Shown: in pieces, positions 1 to 6,082 of the stretch
How positions within the stretch are numbered: the first letter of the stretch is position 1
Layout: each line of letters opens with the position of its first letter
IMG/VR virus record: IMGVR_UViG_2531839661_000013
Location: 1 to 9,877 of that record
Reading direction: 5' to 3' (one strand)
From: a virus
Lineage: Duplodnaviria > Heunggongvirae > Uroviricota > Caudoviricetes
Length of the DNA: 9,877 bases
Translations under genes and position numbers: made by a program
The notes under the pieces: model-generated
The model's input: the letters and a program-made list of their open reading frames with translations, nothing else
What the model was told of the DNA's origin: nothing
The model's database searches: none

Positions 1-1242
1 ATGGCGAGAAAAACACCCCCATTAACCACAGTACAGATCAAAGCAGCCAGACCAGCAGAAAAGGAATACACCCTACAGGACGGCGGAGGGCTTTTTCTCC
101 TGATCAAACCGTCCGGATCAAAACTCTGGAGATTTTCCTACTACCGACCATCGGACAAAAAAAGAATATTGCTGAGTTTTGGATCGCTTGATGATGTTTC
201 CCTGGCTGATGCCAGAAAACGCCGTAGCGAGTACAGGGCGTTAATTCGTGCCGGAACTGACCCGCAGGACCACGAGAGGCAAAAAAGAGAGACAGAGGCC
301 CGAAGACAAGGGAACACGTTCGAAAATGTGGCAACAGCATGGTACCAGGTGAAAATCAGCCAGAATCTGGCCCCCAATACGATTAAAGACATCTGGCGAT
401 CGCTGGAAAAATATGTATTCCCGTTCATCGGCAACACGCCAATAGACACCCTGACCGCTCGCAGGTTCGTTGAGGTGCTTACCCCCATCAAGGAACGTGG
501 CAACCTGGAAACGCTCAAGCGAGTTTTACAGCGTATAAATGAGGTAATGGATTACGCCGCCAATAGTGGGATGATTGATGCCAATCCGGCTATGAATGTG
601 CGTAAGGCGTTCCCCTCCCCTGTAAAAAAACATATGCCAACAATCCGCCCCGAACAGCTGCCGGAGCTTATGCAGGCTTTATCAGTATCGGCAACAGAAC
701 GGCAGACCAGATTACTGATTGAATGGCAGTTACTGACCGTAACCCGTCCCGTTGAAGCATCGTCGGCACGCTGGGAAGAAATCGACATGGAAGCGCAACG
801 CTGGACCATACCCGCCGGACGCATGAAGATGCGCCGCGACCACGTTATCCCGCTTTGTGACCAGGCTATGGCAGTGCTGGAGGCTATGAAACCAATCAGC
901 CACCACCGCGATTATGTTTTCCCGAGTCTGAAAGACCCACAGCAGCCGATGAACAGCCAGACCGCTAACGCAGCATTACGACGCATGGGATTCGCTGGCG
1001 TGCTGGTGTCTCATGGATTACGCGCCATATTCAGCACAGCAGCGAACGAAGAAGGCTTTGAGCCGGACGTAATAGAGGCCGCACTTGCCCACGTCGACAC
1101 CAACGAAGTCAGACGGGCATACAACCGGAGCAACTACATAGAAAAACGCATCGTGCTTATGCGCTGGTGGGGCGAATTTGTCGAGGCTGCGGCGACGGGC
1201 GTAACCCTCGCCAGTGGTAAAAGGGGTATCCGAGCCGTTTAG
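1..1242 (+). CDS. int: P4-type tyrosine integrase (IntA-like site-specific recombinase)
   Basis: 413-aa ORF starting MARKTPPLT...IKAA...DGGGLFLLIKPSGSKLWRFSYYRP, the N-terminal signature of P4/CP4-57 IntA-type integrases. C-terminal catalytic region has HxxR (AHVDTNEVRRAYNRSNY) and HGLRAIFST motifs. Window begins at its start codon, so the att site and target gene lie upstream, outside the window. Confidence 0.92.
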   Translation: MARKTPPLTTVQIKAARPAEKEYTLQDGGGLFLLIKPSGSKLWRFSYYRPSDKKRILLSFGSLDDVSLADARKRRSEYRALIRAGTDPQDHERQKRETEARRQGNTFENVATAWYQVKISQNLAPNTIKDIWRSLEKYVFPFIGNTPIDTLTARRFVEVLTPIKERGNLETLKRVLQRINEVMDYAANSGMIDANPAMNVRKAFPSPVKKHMPTIRPEQLPELMQALSVSATERQTRLLIEWQLLTVTRPVEASSARWEEIDMEAQRWTIPAGRMKMRRDHVIPLCDQAMAVLEAMKPISHHRDYVFPSLKDPQQPMNSQTANAALRRMGFAGVLVSHGLRAIFSTAANEEGFEPDVIEAALAHVDTNEVRRAYNRSNYIEKRIVLMRWWGEFVEAAATGVTLASGKRGIRAV

Positions 1243-1340
1243 CTGTACAGAAAACCAGTAAAAACTACGAAAACCATTTAAAACCGTCGTATAATTGCAT
1301 CACATTTAACGACGAGGCCTTGAAAAATGAAACTGTTAAG

Positions 1341-1571
1341 ATGCAAACAAATTTCAGATGCAATTGCGACGGGCTGCAACTGGCCCTGATGGTTCAGCAT
1401 GAATTTTGGTCAACCTACGATCCGGAGGACAGAACGACGGCCCCATCAAAAAAACAGGTAGTAGATTTCCTGGTATCCCGTGGGGCTTCCAGAAATCTGG
1501 CTGTAAGTATTGATAAGGTTGTACGTCCGGCATCCATGAAGACCGGAGGCAGGCCAAAAAAATGGCGGTAA
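1341..1571 (+). CDS. hypothetical small protein (76 aa from ATG 1341; the track ORF uses a TTG at 1320)
   Basis: ORF co-oriented with int and alpA. A perfect TATAAT lies at 1290-1295 and a strong intrinsic terminator directly follows the stop. No convincing Shine-Dalgarno before the ATG, so the transcript could instead be non-coding. Confidence 0.3.
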   Translation: MQTNFRCNCDGLQLALMVQHEFWSTYDPEDRTTAPSKKQVVDFLVSRGASRNLAVSIDKVVRPASMKTGGRPKKWR

Positions 1572-1581
1572 CAATCCTGAA

Positions 1582-1605
1582 AGCGGCAGAAATGCCGCTT
1601 TTTTT
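1582..1605 (+). terminator. Rho-independent terminator
   Basis: Stem AGCGGCA (1582-1588), loop GAAA, stem TGCCGCT (1593-1599), then a T7 run. Confidence 0.6.
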
Positions 1606-1630
1606 ATAAATCCCTTTCAAATCATCAATA

Positions 1631-1723
1631 TAAAAAACGGTGTATACCGTTTAAAAACGGTGAGTACTGTTTTTCCCTGCATCCGATGATTTACCGTATT
1701 TCTCACCGGAATACACCGGATTA
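1631..1723 (+). promoter_or_regulatory. repeat-rich putative control region upstream of alpA
   Basis: Direct repeats AAAAACGGTGTATAC (1633-1647) and AAAAACGGTGAGTAC (1653-1667), the first embedded in the dyad AAACGG-TGTATA-CCGTTT. Tandem CACCGGAATA / CACCGGATTA at 1704-1723, just 5' of the alpA RBS (GAGG 1726-1729). Confidence 0.35.
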
Positions 1724-1738
1724 ATGAGGTAAATCACG

Positions 1739-1945
1739 ATGGAAGCAATCAAAAAAGTCATCTTTCGCCAGGAAGTAAAAAAACTTATCCACATTAAGGC
1801 AGACAGCACGCTGCAAAGCATGATCAACGCCGGAGAATTCCCGCAGGGTTTTCGTGTCGGTTTGCGCCGTCGCGGATGGTATGAGGAAGACGTAATCGCA
1901 TGGATGAAAGAACGCGAACAAGAAGCGCGCGGAACGACCGCTTAA
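1739..1945 (+). CDS. alpA: AlpA-family phage/satellite transcriptional regulator (MerR-like HTH)
   Basis: 68-aa protein with the AlpA pattern: hydrophobic segment plus HTH (VIFRQEVKKLIHIKADSTLQSMINAGEFPQ), then GxRxxGWxEEDVxAWM. RBS GAGG sits 9 nt upstream. Confidence 0.85.
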   Translation: MEAIKKVIFRQEVKKLIHIKADSTLQSMINAGEFPQGFRVGLRRRGWYEEDVIAWMKEREQEARGTTA

Positions 1946-1970
1946 CATATATAGGGCAAATGATGAACAT

Positions 1971-1998
1971 AAAAAAAGCGGCCCCGAAATGGAGCCAC
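1971..1998 (-). terminator. putative intrinsic terminator for the leftward small-gene cluster (weakly bidirectional)
   Basis: On the minus strand: GGCUCC-AUUUC-GGGGCC (6-bp stem with one G-U pair), then GC and a U7 run. Lies between the convergent alpA and the 2067-2270 gene. Confidence 0.4.
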
Positions 1999-2066
1999 CT
2001 TTCTGAACAATTAACCCGCTGCGCCGTATGTGTCAACAATCATAAGCCCGGGCATGATAACCGCGA

Positions 2067-2270
2067 TCAGGCTGGTGGGCAATTATCTTGCTTGTTGGGG
2101 CCGTATTGTGCTGCCATTTTCATCCGTTCAGAACGTGAATATTTTTTTAGAAACTCATCAAGGACAAAAGCGCATGGTGCGAATCTTTCTGATTCATGCT
2201 CGAACGCCATATTTTCGTGCTCTCTGTTCGTTTTTTGCGATGGTGTATTGGTTGATTCTTTGTTGGTCAT
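2067..2270 (-). CDS. hypothetical small protein (67 aa), module-2 partner, paralog of the 2616-2843 product
   Basis: Begins ATGACCAACAA (MTNK...), identical at nucleotide level to the start of ORF 2616-2843. N-terminal pattern P-x-Q-x-T-x-x-E-x-E is shared between the two. Preceded by the conserved leader. Confidence 0.5.
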   Translation of the reverse strand: MTNKESTNTPSQKTNREHENMAFEHESERFAPCAFVLDEFLKKYSRSERMKMAAQYGPNKQDNCPPA

Positions 2271-2323
2271 TGTGTGTACCTGTAAAGCAATGCGCCGGAG
2301 TTCCTCACGCCACGGCGCTGATG
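2260..2323 (-). promoter_or_regulatory. conserved leader / translation-initiation element, copy 2
   Basis: 45-bp core (2279-2323) matches 2852-2896 at 42 of 45 positions. Contains the dyad GCGCCG-N15-CGGCGC. The 11-mer TTGTTGGTCAT (reverse complement ATGACCAACAA) at 2260-2270 is identical in both copies. Confidence 0.55.
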
Positions 2324-2327
2324 TTTT

Positions 2328-2501
2328 TTATCCTTTGGGTTCAATACCGCGTTGCTGTAATTCTTTTCGGAGTACTCGCTTGATCCAGGTGGCTAAAGAA
2401 GTGTCACCGTCTGCTTTCGCTGCCTCTTCAAGTTGTGCTCTGAATTCTTCTGGTAGCCGCATTTGGTATGGAGGCGATCGCTTTTCCAATGGTGTTGACA
2501 T
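2328..2501 (-). CDS. Arc/MetJ-type ribbon-helix-helix DNA-binding protein (57 aa)
   Basis: Hand translation of the minus strand gives MSTPLEKRSPPYQMRLPEEFRAQLEEAAKADGDTSLATWIKRVLRKELQQRGIEPKG. The segment RLPEEFRAQLEEAAKADGDTSLATWIKRVL is a classic RHH beta-strand, helix, turn, helix pattern. AAGGG lies 8 nt before the ATG. Not in the supplied ORF track because it is under the length cutoff. Confidence 0.7.
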   Translation of the reverse strand: MSTPLEKRSPPYQMRLPEEFRAQLEEAAKADGDTSLATWIKRVLRKELQQRGIEPKG

Positions 2502-2541
2502 GGTAATTACCCTTAATTACTATAGTTACATGGTAATTACC
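2502..2541. promoter_or_regulatory. putative operator: two perfect 10-bp palindromes GGTAATTACC
   Basis: GGTAATTACC at 2502-2511 and 2532-2541, 30 bp centre to centre, with a third TAATTAC half-site at 2514-2520. Immediately upstream of the Arc-like gene, overlapping its RBS and a candidate -10 (TATAGT on the minus strand). Confidence 0.5.
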
Positions 2542-2560
2542 ATTGTACTTACCGTTATAC

Positions 2561-2596
2561 AAAAAACAACGCCCCGGAAACGGAATAATCCGTTTC
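2561..2596 (-). terminator. possible terminator/insulator between module 1 and module 2
   Basis: Perfect 8-bp hairpin GAAACGGA-N4-TCCGTTTC (2577-2596), followed on the minus strand by CGGGGCGTTGTTTTTT. The U-run starts about 10 nt after the stem, so this is not a canonical terminator. Confidence 0.3.
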
Positions 2597-2615
2597 ATAG
2601 TTCCGTTTTGTGTAC

Positions 2616-2843
2616 TCATCCTGGCGGGCGATTCTTACGGGACTTTAGCCGCCGTGGGCAGCTTGCTAAAAATGCCTCCAACGCGAATAGTCCTGGTTTC
2701 ATTTCTATCGGTATTAGTTGGATATTCAGAGGATTAGCCAGTTCGGCTTCAAGGCGAGCACAGGTTTCTAACTGCCTTTGCCGAATGATTTCATCTTCTT
2801 GCGTCTGCGTGTCTTGTATTGGTAATAGTGTGTTGTTGGTCAT
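2616..2843 (-). CDS. hypothetical small protein (75 aa), module-1 partner, paralog of the 2067-2270 product
   Basis: Begins ATGACCAACAA (MTNN...). Weak RBS (CAGGG) lies inside the conserved leader. C-terminus is basic (RRLKSRKNRPPG). Confidence 0.5.
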   Translation of the reverse strand: MTNNTLLPIQDTQTQEDEIIRQRQLETCARLEAELANPLNIQLIPIEMKPGLFALEAFLASCPRRLKSRKNRPPG

Positions 2844-2896
2844 GGTACTGCCCTGTAAAGCAATGCGCCGTAGTACCTCACGCCACGGCGCTGATA
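2833..2896 (-). promoter_or_regulatory. conserved leader / translation-initiation element, copy 1
   Basis: Paralogous to 2260-2323 with the same GCGCCG-N15-CGGCGC dyad. Sits between the stop of the RHH gene (2901) and the start of ORF 2616-2843. Confidence 0.55.
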
Positions 2897-2900
2897 GTGA

Positions 2901-3080
2901 TTATTCTGATTCTTTGGCCTTGCGACGCTGGCGGCGTTTGATTTCGCCGCGCATGGCAGTAACGATAAATTGTGCGTCTGTTTCGTTTTCTTCTTTTACC
3001 AAATTCATTTCGCTTAAAACGTCTAGAGGTACTCTAGCAGTTTTTTGTTGTGACTTGTTGTTGGTTGTACCTGTTGGCAT
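2901..3080 (-). CDS. putative ribbon-helix-helix-like DNA-binding protein (59 aa)
   Basis: Internal ATG of the 107-aa track ORF, preceded by a perfect AAGGAG with 7-nt spacer. Product MPTGTTNNKSQQKTARVPLDVLSEMNLVKEENETDAQFIVTAMRGEIKRRQRRKAKESE has an RHH-like strand-helix-helix pattern and a basic tail. The N-terminal extension in the track would run across the operator dyads. Confidence 0.5.
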   Translation of the reverse strand: MPTGTTNNKSQQKTARVPLDVLSEMNLVKEENETDAQFIVTAMRGEIKRRQRRKAKESE

Positions 3081-3103
3081 CTCTGTTCTCCTTACTGTTA
3101 GGT

Positions 3104-3207
3104 GGTGTTCAGTATACGGAGAAAAAAAAATAAAAAAAGACTTGAAGTGCAAGTCACCTAAAAGTAACCTAGATTTCAAGGTGACTTGCACCAAAAAACA
3201 ACGCCCC
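3104..3207. promoter_or_regulatory. divergent control region with 13-bp inverted repeats and an A-tract
   Basis: Inverted repeat GTGCAAGTCACCT (3147-3159) / AGGTGACTTGCAC (3179-3191). Nested hairpin GACTTG-AAGTG-CAAGTC (3139-3155). A9-T-A7 tract at 3122-3138. Candidate leftward -10 TATACT (minus strand, 3111-3116). Shared 15-mer AAAAAACAACGCCCC at 3193-3207. Confidence 0.45.
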
Positions 3208-3264
3208 ACAGTGCTGGAACACATGCAGGGCGTCTAACCACAAACACTATAGAGAGGTAAATTT

Positions 3265-3459
3265 ATGGTTGCCGTAAATCATACCCCACGACTAGCACAC
3301 ACACAAACGGCCTTTGTGTGGCGTTTTCTGGCACTGAGTGCCGGAGAATCTCAAATCATCCACGTAACCGCCTGGACGGAACGCGAAGCGCGTAGCCGTT
3401 GCCCGTCCGGTTGTGTCGCTGTATTTGCCGCCCGTATTCGCCAGGGGGTAGGCTTATGA
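3265..3459 (+). CDS. small protein, possibly Icd-like host cell-division inhibitor family
   Basis: 64 aa, RBS GAGAGG 7 nt upstream. Motif AFVWRFLALSAG...VTAWTEREARSR...VAVFAARIR resembles the short Icd-like proteins found upstream of primases in P4-like elements. Family assignment is from memory of the pattern and is not verified. Confidence 0.5.
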   Translation: MVAVNHTPRLAHTQTAFVWRFLALSAGESQIIHVTAWTEREARSRCPSGCVAVFAARIRQGVGL

Positions 3460-3689
3460 GCCAGGAAATCACACTACAACAGGCAGCAGAACGCGCCCAC
3501 CAAATCGAAGTTATTTGCGCACTGGCAGAGGATTACCCTGGCATGATGACCGACAGCGAATCAGGGGCAATCATCGGCTTACTTAAACGCCTTAGCGGTG
3601 AGGTCTGCGTATTCCTGAGCGATGAACAGGAAAGAAGAACGCTTATTTCTAACGAAAAAAAATGCGGAGGGGTACACCATGTGCAATAA
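3456..3689 (+). CDS. hypothetical protein (77 aa)
   Basis: ATG at 3456 overlaps the upstream stop (ATGA). RBS AGGGGG 7 nt upstream. First of a run of translationally coupled genes. Confidence 0.55.
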   Translation: MSQEITLQQAAERAHQIEVICALAEDYPGMMTDSESGAIIGLLKRLSGEVCVFLSDEQERRTLISNEKKCGGVHHVQ

Positions 3690-3939
3690 AACCACACCGG
3701 ACGCAGCCGCCGAAGCCATCAAAACGCTGATGCACGCGCTGATTGATATTTCTGTTATCGCGGACAGGGCACATAAGCACGCCACCAGCGAAACAGAATA
3801 TGCCGGGGCTTTCGTTCCTCACTCACTGGCTGTTATGCAATTTAGTGCTGATATGGCACTGAATGAGGCTAAAACCATCCTGATTACTGATTGTGAAAAT
3901 GGGGGGGGGTTATGCGTGATGATCGTTTTAATTCCCTGA
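3679..3939 (+). CDS. hypothetical protein (86 aa); reading frame crosses a G9 homopolymer
   Basis: ATG 3679 with RBS GGAGGGG. The C-terminus (ENGGGLCVMIVLIP) is translated through the G9 run at 3901-3909, so its 3' end and length depend on the tract length. Confidence 0.45.
   Translation: MCNKTTPDAAAEAIKTLMHALIDISVIADRAHKHATSETEYAGAFVPHSLAVMQFSADMALNEAKTILITDCENGGGLCVMIVLIP
3901..3909. repeat. G9 homopolymeric tract at a gene junction
   Basis: Nine consecutive G directly seen at 3901-3909. The run serves as the Shine-Dalgarno for the ATG at 3912 and lies inside the 3' end of the preceding ORF. Confidence 0.9.
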
Positions 3940-4145
3940 AACAAGAATTTTCCGGCGTTCCTGATGATGCGGCTGATGCGCTTTCGTCAATGCCAGAACT
4001 TATTAGAGCGGCTTTTTTCTTACTTTCCACGAAAGAATATAAATCAACGGGACTTGATGTACTGAATATCGCCGCCGATTATGCGGAATATGTGGCAGAG
4101 GCGCGTTACAGAAGAAAATTTCCTGAGGATGTAAGCCATGCGTGA
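3912..4145 (+). CDS. hypothetical protein (77 aa)
   Basis: ATG 3912 is two nt downstream of the G-run. Acidic, helical-looking sequence with no recognisable motif. Confidence 0.5.
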   Translation: MRDDRFNSLKQEFSGVPDDAADALSSMPELIRAAFFLLSTKEYKSTGLDVLNIAADYAEYVAEARYRRKFPEDVSHA

Positions 4146-4371
4146 TATTTACATTGAAACAATAGACCGCGCATTTAGTGCCCTTGCTTACGCTGAAGGT
4201 ATGTACGAAATATTGCAAATGTGGCTGGAAACATTTGACGATAATGAGCGTGATGTAAAGAAGGCGCGGATTATTAAATCACTGATAACTCTCCTTGAAC
4301 CTGTAATAACAGAGTTGCAGGAAATAGACTTATTGCACGACAGATATAACGAACAGCACACCGGAGAATAA
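4138..4371 (+). CDS. hypothetical protein (77 aa)
   Basis: Start overlaps the upstream stop by 8 nt. Acidic helical protein. Confidence 0.55.
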   Translation: MRDIYIETIDRAFSALAYAEGMYEILQMWLETFDDNERDVKKARIIKSLITLLEPVITELQEIDLLHDRYNEQHTGE

Positions 4372-4376
4372 AAATA

Positions 4377-4676
4377 ATGAAACTTAAATATTCTGGCTTA
4401 ACTGCCAGTGGCAACACTCACCCTAAATTTACGCGCGGTGATATTTACCGCGACCAGTACGGCGGCACGGTAATGATTAAGGGCGTGGCGGGACGGTGCG
4501 TAACTTACCGCCGTGAAGGTTACGAATATGATTGCGTGATGCCTGTTTATCAGTTCCGGCGTGATTTTTCTCTGGTACAGACCGCGCCGCATAACGTGCC
4601 CACCAGCAACGCCAGGGCACGGGCAAACATCCAGAAGCTGAAAACCATGATTAACGGATTCAGGAGTAAAAAATGA
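4377..4676 (+). CDS. hypothetical protein (99 aa)
   Basis: RBS GGAG upstream. Its stop overlaps the primase ATG (ATGA at 4673-4676). Confidence 0.55.
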   Translation: MKLKYSGLTASGNTHPKFTRGDIYRDQYGGTVMIKGVAGRCVTYRREGYEYDCVMPVYQFRRDFSLVQTAPHNVPTSNARARANIQKLKTMINGFRSKK

Positions 4677-6082
4677 AACTGGCACCGAACGTAAAACTAT
4701 TACCGAAAGATAAATACACCGATGCGATTATTTTTGCGGGTATTGATGCTCACTCATTCGCAGAGCATTACATCATTGCACAGGCCAAAAAAGCAGGCGA
4801 TCCAGTCCCTCCCGTTTATCTGGGGCGTTATCAGTTAAGCGAACTGGATAACCTCCAGATTGTTGATGATGGGCGATACAGGGCGACGGTGATACGCGCC
4901 GGAAATATTGAAGAGCCGCAGCTGTTAACCATCGCCACGAAACTGGCGATCGCCGGAGTCCAGGAGGCGCGGCTACTTTCTGAAAATTTCGAATTGCTGG
5001 AGGAATGGAGCGACCAGCTTCCACGGCTTAGGGAGGCATGGGAACGCGGGGAAAGCCTGGTCATGAAAAAAATCCCCCAGCGAAAAACCACGCTACCGAT
5101 GAGCGTTGGATCTACCGGATACGACACACAGCTTGATTACGTGGTAAAGGGGATTATTCCGGCATCGTCGCTTTGCAGCATATACGGGGCGAGCGGTTCC
5201 TATAAATCATTCCTTGCCGGATCGTGGGCGTGTCACGTTTCCACGGGCCGCCAGTGGGGAGGCCGCAGGGTGGCGCATGGCGCTGTTCTCTATGTGGTTG
5301 GTGAAGGCGGTATCGGCGTTCCGCGTCGTGTAAAAGCCTGGGAGGTTGTGCACGATGAGCAGGTGAAAAATCTGTATCTGGTAAACCGTCCCATCTTTCC
5401 GGCGGTCCCGCTTGATGTTGATGAAATGGTTATCGCTGCCCGTCAGGTGGAGCGGGAAACGGGTAAACCTGTACGCATGATTATTCTGGATACGCTGGCG
5501 CGTTGCTTTGGTGGCAATGATGAAAATGATTCCCGTGATATGGGGGCATTTATCCGTGGTTGTGACGAACTGAAACGACGCACAGGGGCTACGGTGCTGG
5601 TGGTTCACCATTCCGGCAAGGATGAGACGAAAGGCGCGCGTGGTTCCAGTGCATTTCGTGCATCACTGGACGCTGAATACCGGATACGCAGGGAGGACGC
5701 AGGAAGCGAAGCGCTGGTTATCTCATGCACCAAAATGAAGGACGCGGAGGAACTCAAAGAAGCCGCATATGACTTACGCGTGGTGGAGCTGTTTACCGAC
5801 GCTGACGGGGAGTTAATCACGTCGCTGGTGGTGGTGGATAAGCCGCGTCCTCCCGTTGAACTGGAGCGCATCGAAGAGGCTGGCAACAAGACGGAGAATC
5901 ATGCTGCGCTATGGGGATGTATCCGGTCACGCACACAGCACGGCGACAAGTGCACGATCCCGCTGTTACGTGACGATATGAAAAAGCTGGGGTACGAAAT
6001 GAAAAACTTCAGCCGCTGGCTACGCAAGCTGGAAAAAGACGCCGTTATTTATATCGACGGTGATGATGTAGGCCCTCTGTAA
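4673..6082 (+). CDS. satellite replication protein: RecA-fold ATPase (RepA/DnaB-like), primase/helicase-like
   Basis: 469 aa. P-loop YGASGSYKSF at 5183-5212 (variant Walker A, GxxGxYKS). Walker B-like hhhhD (MIILDTLA) and downstream VLVVHHSGKDE...GSSAF, typical of RepA-like replicative ATPases. RBS AGGAG 6 nt upstream. An iteron array follows immediately. Confidence 0.8.
   Translation: MKLAPNVKLLPKDKYTDAIIFAGIDAHSFAEHYIIAQAKKAGDPVPPVYLGRYQLSELDNLQIVDDGRYRATVIRAGNIEEPQLLTIATKLAIAGVQEARLLSENFELLEEWSDQLPRLREAWERGESLVMKKIPQRKTTLPMSVGSTGYDTQLDYVVKGIIPASSLCSIYGASGSYKSFLAGSWACHVSTGRQWGGRRVAHGAVLYVVGEGGIGVPRRVKAWEVVHDEQVKNLYLVNRPIFPAVPLDVDEMVIAARQVERETGKPVRMIILDTLARCFGGNDENDSRDMGAFIRGCDELKRRTGATVLVVHHSGKDETKGARGSSAFRASLDAEYRIRREDAGSEALVISCTKMKDAEELKEAAYDLRVVELFTDADGELITSLVVVDKPRPPVELERIEEAGNKTENHAALWGCIRSRTQHGDKCTIPLLRDDMKKLGYEMKNFSRWLRKLEKDAVIYIDGDDVGPL

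Follow-up and report, generated by a model that had tools for sequence, protein, structure and literature searches.

What do two identical, perfectly symmetrical DNA sites do directly in front of a small regulator gene of a phage satellite? This question is raised by a stretch of 9,877 nucleotides (positions 1 to 9,877 of the IMG/VR record IMGVR_UViG_2531839661_000013; hereafter, the window), in which a pair of palindromes precedes an Arc-like gene of 57 amino acids (aa) and presumed ribbon-helix-helix (RHH) type. Judged by its genes, the window is an Escherichia coli capsid-encoding phage satellite of the phage-inducible chromosomal island (PICI) type, integrated beside tRNA-Pro. We assigned it to this type because the gene set matches the description in bioRxiv 10.1101/2022.09.08.507074, and in NZ_CP146507 (E. 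coli strain 10), which has 100% identity to the window, a tRNA-Pro gene adjoins the element. Considering the sequence features, their conservation, the palindrome and N-terminal variants that go together, the gene context, and an RHH-like fold, we propose, with a probability of about two in three, that the palindromes are operators for dimers of the adjacent Arc-like protein, within a control switch of the satellite.

The sequence GGTAATTACC was found as exact copies at 2502-2511 and 2532-2541, with a start-to-start distance of 30 bp, directly upstream of the Arc-like gene on the minus strand (2328-2501), which confirms the initial annotation's two identical 10-bp palindromes three helical turns apart. 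The proximal candidate operator, O1 (2502-2511), is the perfect 10-bp palindrome GGTAATTACC itself, while the distal candidate, O2 (2530-2543), is a perfect 14-bp palindrome, ATGGTAATTACCAT, with the GGTAATTACC copy at 2532-2541 as its core. The repeated unit is longer than 10 bp, as ACATGGTAATTACC forms a 14-nt direct repeat. A degenerate third site, O3 (2544-2553; TGTACTTACC, reverse complement GGTAAGTACA), agrees with the consensus at 8 of 10 positions and lies 12 bp from O2. O1 abuts the ATG of the Arc-like gene (2499-2501, minus strand) and shares 2 nt with its Shine-Dalgarno-like AAGGG (2510-2514, minus strand). Allowing at most one mismatch, GGTAATTACC occurs three times in the window against 0.14 expected, a count reached by none of 200 shuffles. 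A one-mismatch copy of the operator, TGTAATTACC, was noticed at 6784-6793 near the 3′ end of a PerC-like gene; a single extra match of this kind is compatible with chance.

We then compared the control region across 60 loci (one genome per species), four further E. coli loci (L002-L005), Pmp8 (L066, a 15-kb ‘Pasteurella phage’ record), and an IncR plasmid, which together gave 53 distinct upstream sequences from four orders of Gammaproteobacteria (Enterobacterales, Pasteurellales, Orbales, and Aeromonadales). Counting as a palindrome any 10-mer with at least 4 of 5 palindromic pairs (background 3.7%), an O1-type palindrome ending 0-1 nt before the start codon was present in 43 of the 53, an O2-type palindrome in 35, and both in 31. 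The start-to-start spacing of O1 and O2 was 31 bp in 22 regions and 30 bp in 15 (37/53), and 26-36 bp in the others; in the footprint alignment, O2 stands out as a high-information block. In 36 of 47 distinct loci, the best-matching O3-like 10-mer is 11-12 bp away from O2, and it reaches at least 7/10 identity in 37 of these 47, compared with 8.6% of composition-shuffled controls. In L003, where the DNA of the gene is only ∼71-73% identical, both palindromes are perfect and 30 bp apart and the intervening 20 bp have diverged. Throughout ∼370 kb of loci, exact GGTAATTACC, TGTAATTACA, or GGTATATACC (the last two being variants from other genera) fall within Arc-like control regions at all but two sites. 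Among 5,426 complete E. coli genomes, 565 (∼10%) match part of a query spanning 2320-2620, and in 387 the match extends over at least 80% of the query. The initial annotation had named the absence of the palindromes from homologous loci as evidence that would speak against an operator; instead, the two-site layout, with palindromic sites over the core promoter beside the regulator gene, recurs in most of the 53 distinct regions.

This conservation bears on the simplest alternative, that the palindromes are AT-rich parts of overlapping promoter elements which arose by chance or composition and have no dedicated binding protein. The region is certainly AT-rich and dense in promoter-like hexamers, and TAATTA resembles a -10 element. 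Besides the shuffling result, however, the paired sites are conserved over four orders while their flanks diverge, and the palindrome changes symmetrically between clades, and we give this explanation hardly any credence.

The strongest and best-conserved promoter at the sites, the predicted rightward sigma-70 promoter P_R, matches 10 of 12 positions and lies on the plus strand, opposite to the Arc-like gene. Its -35 element TTGACA (2495-2500) overlaps the Arc-like start codon and codons 2-3 on the other strand, its -10 element TACTAT (2518-2523) follows after 17 bp, and its predicted start (∼2530-2531) is at the edge of O2. O1 thus fills the spacer of P_R, and O2 begins 7-9 nt past the -10 element, over the predicted start. 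The position of TTGACA is constant in nearly all loci, a -10-like hexamer occurs 17-18 bp further in most of them, and over the complete promoter 10-12 of 12 positions agree in 36 of the 53 distinct regions. The bases around the -10 element vary, with the pattern T-A---T retained. Ser2 is encoded by TCA in 47 of 47 cases, and the first base of codon 3 is invariably A, whichever amino acid this codon encodes and whether the start codon is ATG, TTG, or GTG, which points to selection at the DNA level. The TAATTAC that the initial annotation had read as a third half-site does occur between O1 and O2 (2514-2520), but it coincides with the opposite-strand -10 and is not conserved, being replaced by ctttattgctat in L002 and by ctaacatatgat in L003, where T-A---T persists.

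A second promoter, P_L, is the putative promoter of the Arc-like gene itself, as predicted from a -10 element TACAAT (2542-2547, minus strand) between O3 and O2, whose T and A are high-information columns, and a -35 element TTGTTT (2564-2569, minus strand) within the T-run that follows a conserved GC hairpin arm. The arrangement TTGTTT-16-TACAAT gives an 8/12 match, and the block ‘GCGTTG-TTTT’ is conserved in the footprint alignment. O3 overlaps this putative -10 element, and O2 covers the predicted starts of both promoters, which face each other with their starts only ∼6 bp apart. The earlier view that the palindromes overlap the ribosome-binding site and promoter of the Arc-like gene therefore stands in part: O1 does lie on the Shine-Dalgarno sequence (by 2 nt) and a plausible weak promoter of the gene is overlapped, but the conserved promoter belongs to the opposite strand. 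The proposed cooperative dimer-of-dimers geometry for O1 and O2 fared worse. In RHH dimer-of-dimers operators (e.g., those of Arc and CopG) the subsites are separated by roughly one helical turn (8-13 bp) rather than by 30 bp, and the spacing of O1 and O2 (30-31 bp) would require looping, bending, or independent binding. Since Arc and CopG tetramers use subsites about one turn apart, it is O2 and O3 (11-12 bp) that have the classical geometry.

As the two copies of the palindrome are inverted repeats of each other, they could in principle act in RNA, hiding the translation start signals of the Arc-like transcript (ribosome-binding site and AUG) in a stem and providing translational control without any DNA operator. 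A 12-bp stem with a 20-nt loop is indeed predicted (-14.9 kcal/mol, z = -1.98), and the symmetric G-to-T/C-to-A changes seen among relatives would keep the pairing between copies as well. Nevertheless, the fold is marginal, being equalled by 9 of 200 shuffles, and with the predicted promoters neither transcript would hold both copies. The two copies in Pmp8 (GGTAATTACC and GGTATATACC) and in locus L035 (GGTAATTACC and GGTACGTACC) are each perfect palindromes whose centres differ, so that pairing between the copies is broken at the centre while each copy retains its own symmetry; this argues for a DNA dyad rather than an RNA stem. An RNA stem would also leave the fixed placement around the -35, -10, and +1 of P_R unexplained, and we regard it as highly unlikely.

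The gene next to the sites is annotated in RefSeq (WP_000106747.1, ‘hypothetical protein’), and its product matches PHROG 228 ‘Arc-like repressor’ over residues 6-55 (E 4.9e-7). An AF2 model built from 43 homologues (pLDDT 81) places helices at 17-30 and 35-49 after an extended N-terminus, and nearly all of the top 50 Foldseek matches in the PDB are RHH proteins (AmrZ, Arc, CopG, NikR, and RHH antitoxins; TM 0.5-0.65). In BLASTP against the Arc sequence, PPYQMRLP of our protein aligns with PQFNLRWP of Arc, which is the DNA-reading strand, at 23% identity; this alignment would fit a dimer whose paired beta-strands enter the major groove. Taken together, the evidence for an RHH fold, which comes from modelling and profile matches, is consistent but soft. 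A PDB sequence search with the family profile was discarded, as its top matches were designed helical-repeat proteins and hence spurious, and AmrZ appeared only at E 0.73. The family comprises 93 clustered homologues of ∼57 aa with 57-96% identity from Enterobacterales, Pasteurellaceae, Orbaceae (Gilliamella), and Aeromonadales, some of which are labelled ‘Arc family DNA-binding protein’ (NCBI) and others ‘HicB family’ (JGI). Residues 20-55 are nearly invariant among them, and the N-terminal arm and beta-strand are variable. In L002 (E. coli strain 472, an O157:H7-type element; 2561-3154), RefSeq has no Arc-like gene and places an ‘Icd-like pseudogene’ on the opposite strand over this stretch; many annotations thus lack the regulator.

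Many RHH proteins are antitoxins, and the Foldseek matches include VapB, ParD, MazE, and CopA. Together with the ‘HicB family’ label and a small open reading frame (ORF) of 67 aa that follows the gene in the window (2067-2270), this could suggest a type II toxin-antitoxin pair, in which the 67-aa ORF encodes the toxin and the palindromes are the usual sites of antitoxin autoregulation. This reading cannot be upheld, since the downstream ORF lacks conservation, being present only in L001, L002, and L004 (3/66 loci), and has no toxin-family match. The conserved neighbour is instead a divergent replication operon with a consensus promoter, and a toxin-antitoxin pair is accordingly very improbable.

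In L002, L003, and L005, the Arc-like gene directly faces an Icd-like gene and a helicase (RepA) or primase operon at a distance of ∼130 bp. In other genera, the first genes downstream of P_R belong to the Ash family (Phage_ASH) or encode a primase-helicase (Zn_Ribbon_Prim, Toprim_3, D5_N, DUF927), and in many loci an integrase gene is found on the other side of the Arc-like gene. The initial annotation had proposed an autoregulatory operator. The comparison does give strong support to operators matched to the Arc-like protein, but since P_R heads an Icd-like/primase-helicase operon in most relatives, the sites are not merely autoregulatory, and the conserved target appears to be the replication operon.

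Evidence on what reads the sites also comes from natural variants, in which the palindrome and the N-terminal arm and strand of the protein change together. Proteins with KRSP[QP][YF]QMRL (class A), as in this window and many genera, are accompanied by GGTAATTACC; in most class A loci the footprint alignment also has GGG or AGGG preceding O1. Proteins with KTDQYQ[IL]RL (class B) are accompanied by TGTAATTACA in Pectobacterium, Brenneria, Yersinia, Cedecea, Tatumella, Buttiauxella, and Limnobaculum, and those with KRSPQFPMRL by GGTATATACC in Photorhabdus and a Citrobacter. A fourth form, RRGNPPFQFRL, goes with (G)TGTAATTACA(C) or TGTATATACA in L004, L060-L063, and the plasmid locus L067, with the proximal copy degenerate. 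In the first three variants the change is present in both half-sites of both operators, and loci of the RRGNPPFQFRL type have good symmetry in O2 only. The variable protein segment is the one that aligns with the DNA-reading strand of Arc. The site has thus changed together with the DNA-reading segment in four variants, by few independent events. This pattern supports what would be expected of a dyad-symmetric site read by a co-evolving dimer.

Conceivably, the sites are bound by some other factor (an AlpA-type regulator, a helper-phage protein, or a host nucleoid protein), in which case the Arc-like protein would do something else and its match to the site would reflect linkage. Among regulators of Gram-negative PICIs, AlpA alone has been established by experiment, and induction requires it (PMC6092414; bioRxiv 10.1101/2022.09.08.507074). 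Site and gene are adjacent and hence co-inherited, which inflates the apparent protein-site match, and the correspondence between site centre and protein is imperfect, as Pmp8 combines a class A protein with a TATA-centred O1. On the other hand, all four half-sites change together in three of the four protein variants, as expected of a co-evolving dimeric reader, and the segment that varies is the presumed DNA-reading strand of the neighbouring protein. Furthermore, the module keeps its sites outside the int/alpA context. A class D module with hairpin, sites, and GTG start is carried by an IncR plasmid of K. pneumoniae (L067, NZ_CP089007, 2900-3150), and modules of this type occur on resistance plasmids between IS26 and IS903B without integrase or primase context (120 plasmid records). 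As the sites vary along with the adjacent protein, an alternative reader such as AlpA is less parsimonious, and we consider it unlikely.

In addition to linkage and the Pmp8 exception, several observations weigh against operators read by the Arc-like protein. The palindrome classes are largely clade-like, and therefore only ∼3-4 independent changes are represented. The Pantoea homologues L054 and L058 have no palindromes. P_R alone does not exceed chance in the window (two promoter-like sites vs 1.9 expected in 1.6 kb), and it is its conservation that supports it; P_L is weak (typically 8/12), less uniform than P_R, and ill-defined in the TGTAATTACA class. On the protein side, the match to Pfam Arc (PF03869; E 0.0079) has 16.5 bits and is below the gathering score of 20.4, the RHH matches in Foldseek carry weak E-values (0.5-4), and DSSP called no beta-strand on the monomer model, in which the sheet would form only upon dimerization. 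Finally, P_R in the window points antisense into an inserted cassette and no longer abuts the replication operon.

With these points taken into account, operators for the Arc-like protein remain our preferred explanation, and binding by the protein, the transcription starts, repression, and the logic of the switch are what we infer from the arrangement. In most related elements, P_R would transcribe the replication operon (Icd-like or Ash genes with the primase-helicase), and dimers on O1 and O2 would exclude RNA polymerase from P_R, keeping this operon silent. The weaker, leftward P_L would express the repressor gene, and dimers on O2 and O3 would limit P_L, resulting in autoregulation. If O1 were a high-affinity site and occupied alone, P_R would be shut and P_L freed. 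As P_R and P_L are face to face with overlapping polymerase footprints, the region would act as a two-state switch.

A broader proposal, which we put forward tentatively and consider possible rather than probable, is that the 57-aa protein is the master repressor of many Gram-negative satellites, including O157:H7-type capsid-forming PICIs, and holds the replication promoter off via O1-O3 until helper induction, direct or through AlpA, defeats it. The palindrome and protein variants would then be immunity groups among co-resident satellites. The position that would suit such a repressor, divergent from the replication operon, is seen in L002, L003, L005, and many others and is interrupted in the window. 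Immunity groups, if true, would explain stacked double modules such as that of the window, and would be relevant to which satellites can share a cell and which shut each other out. Independently of this proposal, the locus offers a concrete and widely conserved candidate repressor, with predicted sites mapped to the base pair on the promoter of a replication operon, and the natural palindrome/protein variants form a small model in which to follow changes of DNA specificity among RHH proteins.

The interruption in the window can be traced to a 16-nt exact repeat. The conserved leader after P_R is truncated at 2560-2575 (CAAAAAACAACGCCCC, plus strand), the left copy of the repeat, and the leader of the Icd-like operon, which is intact, starts with the right copy at 3192-3207. 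Together the copies flank a 632-bp cassette (2576-3207) with a 75-aa ORF, a gene of the YlcI/YnfO family (a second RHH-type regulator; 2901-3080, in the leftward block), and a second control region; the repeat resembles a joint formed by recombination inside the conserved leader. A terminator-like site is present at 3023-3047. The 75-aa ORF (2616-2843, minus strand) has neither RefSeq annotation nor family match, but it may be a real gene because it is 99% conserved in L004. L002, L003, and L005 have the uninterrupted arrangement and L004 has the same cassette with a different joint, whereas the arrangement of the window is found over at least 80% of its length in 11 of the 5,426 E. coli genomes. 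Read in this way, the window carries two stacked regulator modules before one replication operon.

The two modules resemble each other in several respects, and their regulators look like distant relatives. The 57-aa protein matches the YlcI/YnfO family (NF041551) at E 4.8e-4, both proteins match PHROG 949, both genes occupy the head of an Icd-like operon alike, and each is followed by a copy of a 75-nt repeat. The NF041551 match is, however, below the cut-off (20.1 vs 30 bits), and the control region of the YlcI/YnfO gene has a 13-nt inverted repeat and no GGTAATTACC. When compared directly by BLASTP, the two RHH-type proteins gave no significant match (E 1.9), their relation being seen only via shared weak profile matches. 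One copy of the 75-nt direct repeat (2260-2334 and 2833-2907, 83% identity) comes after each RHH-type gene, behind its stop codon; the repeat contains a GCGCCG...CGGCGC hairpin and extends into the opening codons (MTN...) of the small ORF beyond. The perfect 13-nt inverted repeat, GTGCAAGTCACCT/AGGTGACTTGCAC at 3147-3159 and 3179-3191 upstream of the YlcI/YnfO gene, is a candidate operator of the second module; at the corresponding position, L004 has GTGTTNAACAC palindromes instead. In Photorhabdus (L037-L041), two Arc-like modules (∼1760-1940 and 2980-3156) lie on the same strand, 1.2 kb apart, each with GGTATATACC sites and a TTG start and with two small opposite-strand genes between them, so stacked modules recur outside E. 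coli.

The remaining genes of the window complete the layout of a satellite. An integrase gene (1-1242) and an AlpA-like gene (1739-1945), both on the plus strand, were identified by annotation and profile matches. The 67-aa ORF belongs to the leftward block, while the rightward operon comprises the Icd-like gene (3265-3459), a RepA-type helicase (AAA_25; 4673-6082), the PerC-like gene after it, and a ClpP-like protease/major-capsid fusion (7453-9342). The Icd-like protein matches NCBIfam Icd-like (E 5e-18) and also PHROGs labelled ‘transcriptional repressor’ (phrog_1743, E 7e-23; phrog_6196, E 2e-17), and its usual name may therefore not reflect its role. An Rfam scan of the whole window (E ≤ 1) gave no match to a C4/CI-type immunity RNA (P4 CI RNA, P1 C4). 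The sole Rfam match, SymR-like at 3197-3270 on the minus strand, is sub-threshold (25.9 vs 61 bits, E 0.18). The same segment forms a GC-rich hairpin with a T-run, which is found at the equivalent place in most fetched loci, immediately upstream of the putative -35 element of the regulator. It is oriented as an intrinsic terminator of leftward transcription, with no obvious transcript to terminate at that position, and may serve as a leader-RNA structure or as an RNA antisense to the Icd-like gene at its 5′ end.

How does this proposed switch compare with known systems? In the founding paper on Gram-negative PICIs, the global repressor was left unclear and AlpA was described as an activator (PMC6092414). 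We found no description of the site or of an RHH regulator in these satellites in the literature searched, which was mostly outside subscription journals, and a prior description is possible. The ‘putative repressor’ of EcCIMP1 is an unrelated, PerC-like protein. On the sequence evidence, the presumed RHH repressor/operator pair supplies a candidate repressor for Gram-negative phage satellites. The layout resembles that of the master repressors Stl/Rpr in Gram-positive PICIs (SaPIs), where the regulator gene is divergent from the excision/replication operon and the regulator acts on the promoter of that operon (PMC6092414). The proteins, however, are unrelated in family and size. SaPIs mutated in stl are reported to excise or replicate without a helper, or to be toxic.

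With the lytic/lysogenic switches of P2 and 186, the region shares facing promoters, overlapping polymerase footprints, and repressor sites that flank the lytic -10 element. Those switches use helix-turn-helix repressors, and the start points of 186 are tens of bp apart, whereas the candidate here is a presumed RHH protein, the predicted starts are ∼6 bp apart, and P_L is putative. Among solved structures, AmrZ of Pseudomonas aeruginosa (PDB 3qoq) is the best aligned (32% identity over 44 residues, TM 0.61-0.67, with a Foldseek E of only 0.64) and is an RHH protein with an extended N-terminal arm. AmrZ, however, is encoded on the chromosome, acts as a global regulator, and has a C-terminal oligomerisation region, in place of which the 57-aa protein has just a short conserved tail, RGIEPKG.

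A further parallel is Arc of phage P22 (immI operator, Pant). The two proteins are alike in their small size (∼53-57 aa), their known or presumed RHH type, and their N-terminal arm and beta-strand, and Arc is among the top structural matches of the 57-aa protein, although sequence similarity is marginal at the 23% identity given above and the Pfam Arc match is below its cut-off. The Arc operator lies between the -35 and -10 elements of the promoter that it represses, and Arc also limits its own synthesis; O1 is placed in the spacer of P_R in the same manner. Two Arc dimers occupy one 21-bp operator with subsites 11 bp apart, while the present layout consists of two to three separate palindromes, with O1 and O2 30-31 bp apart and O2 and O3 11-12 bp apart. 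In contrast to P22, moreover, the repressor gene is transcribed opposite to its presumed target operon, with its start codon inside the -35 element of that operon.

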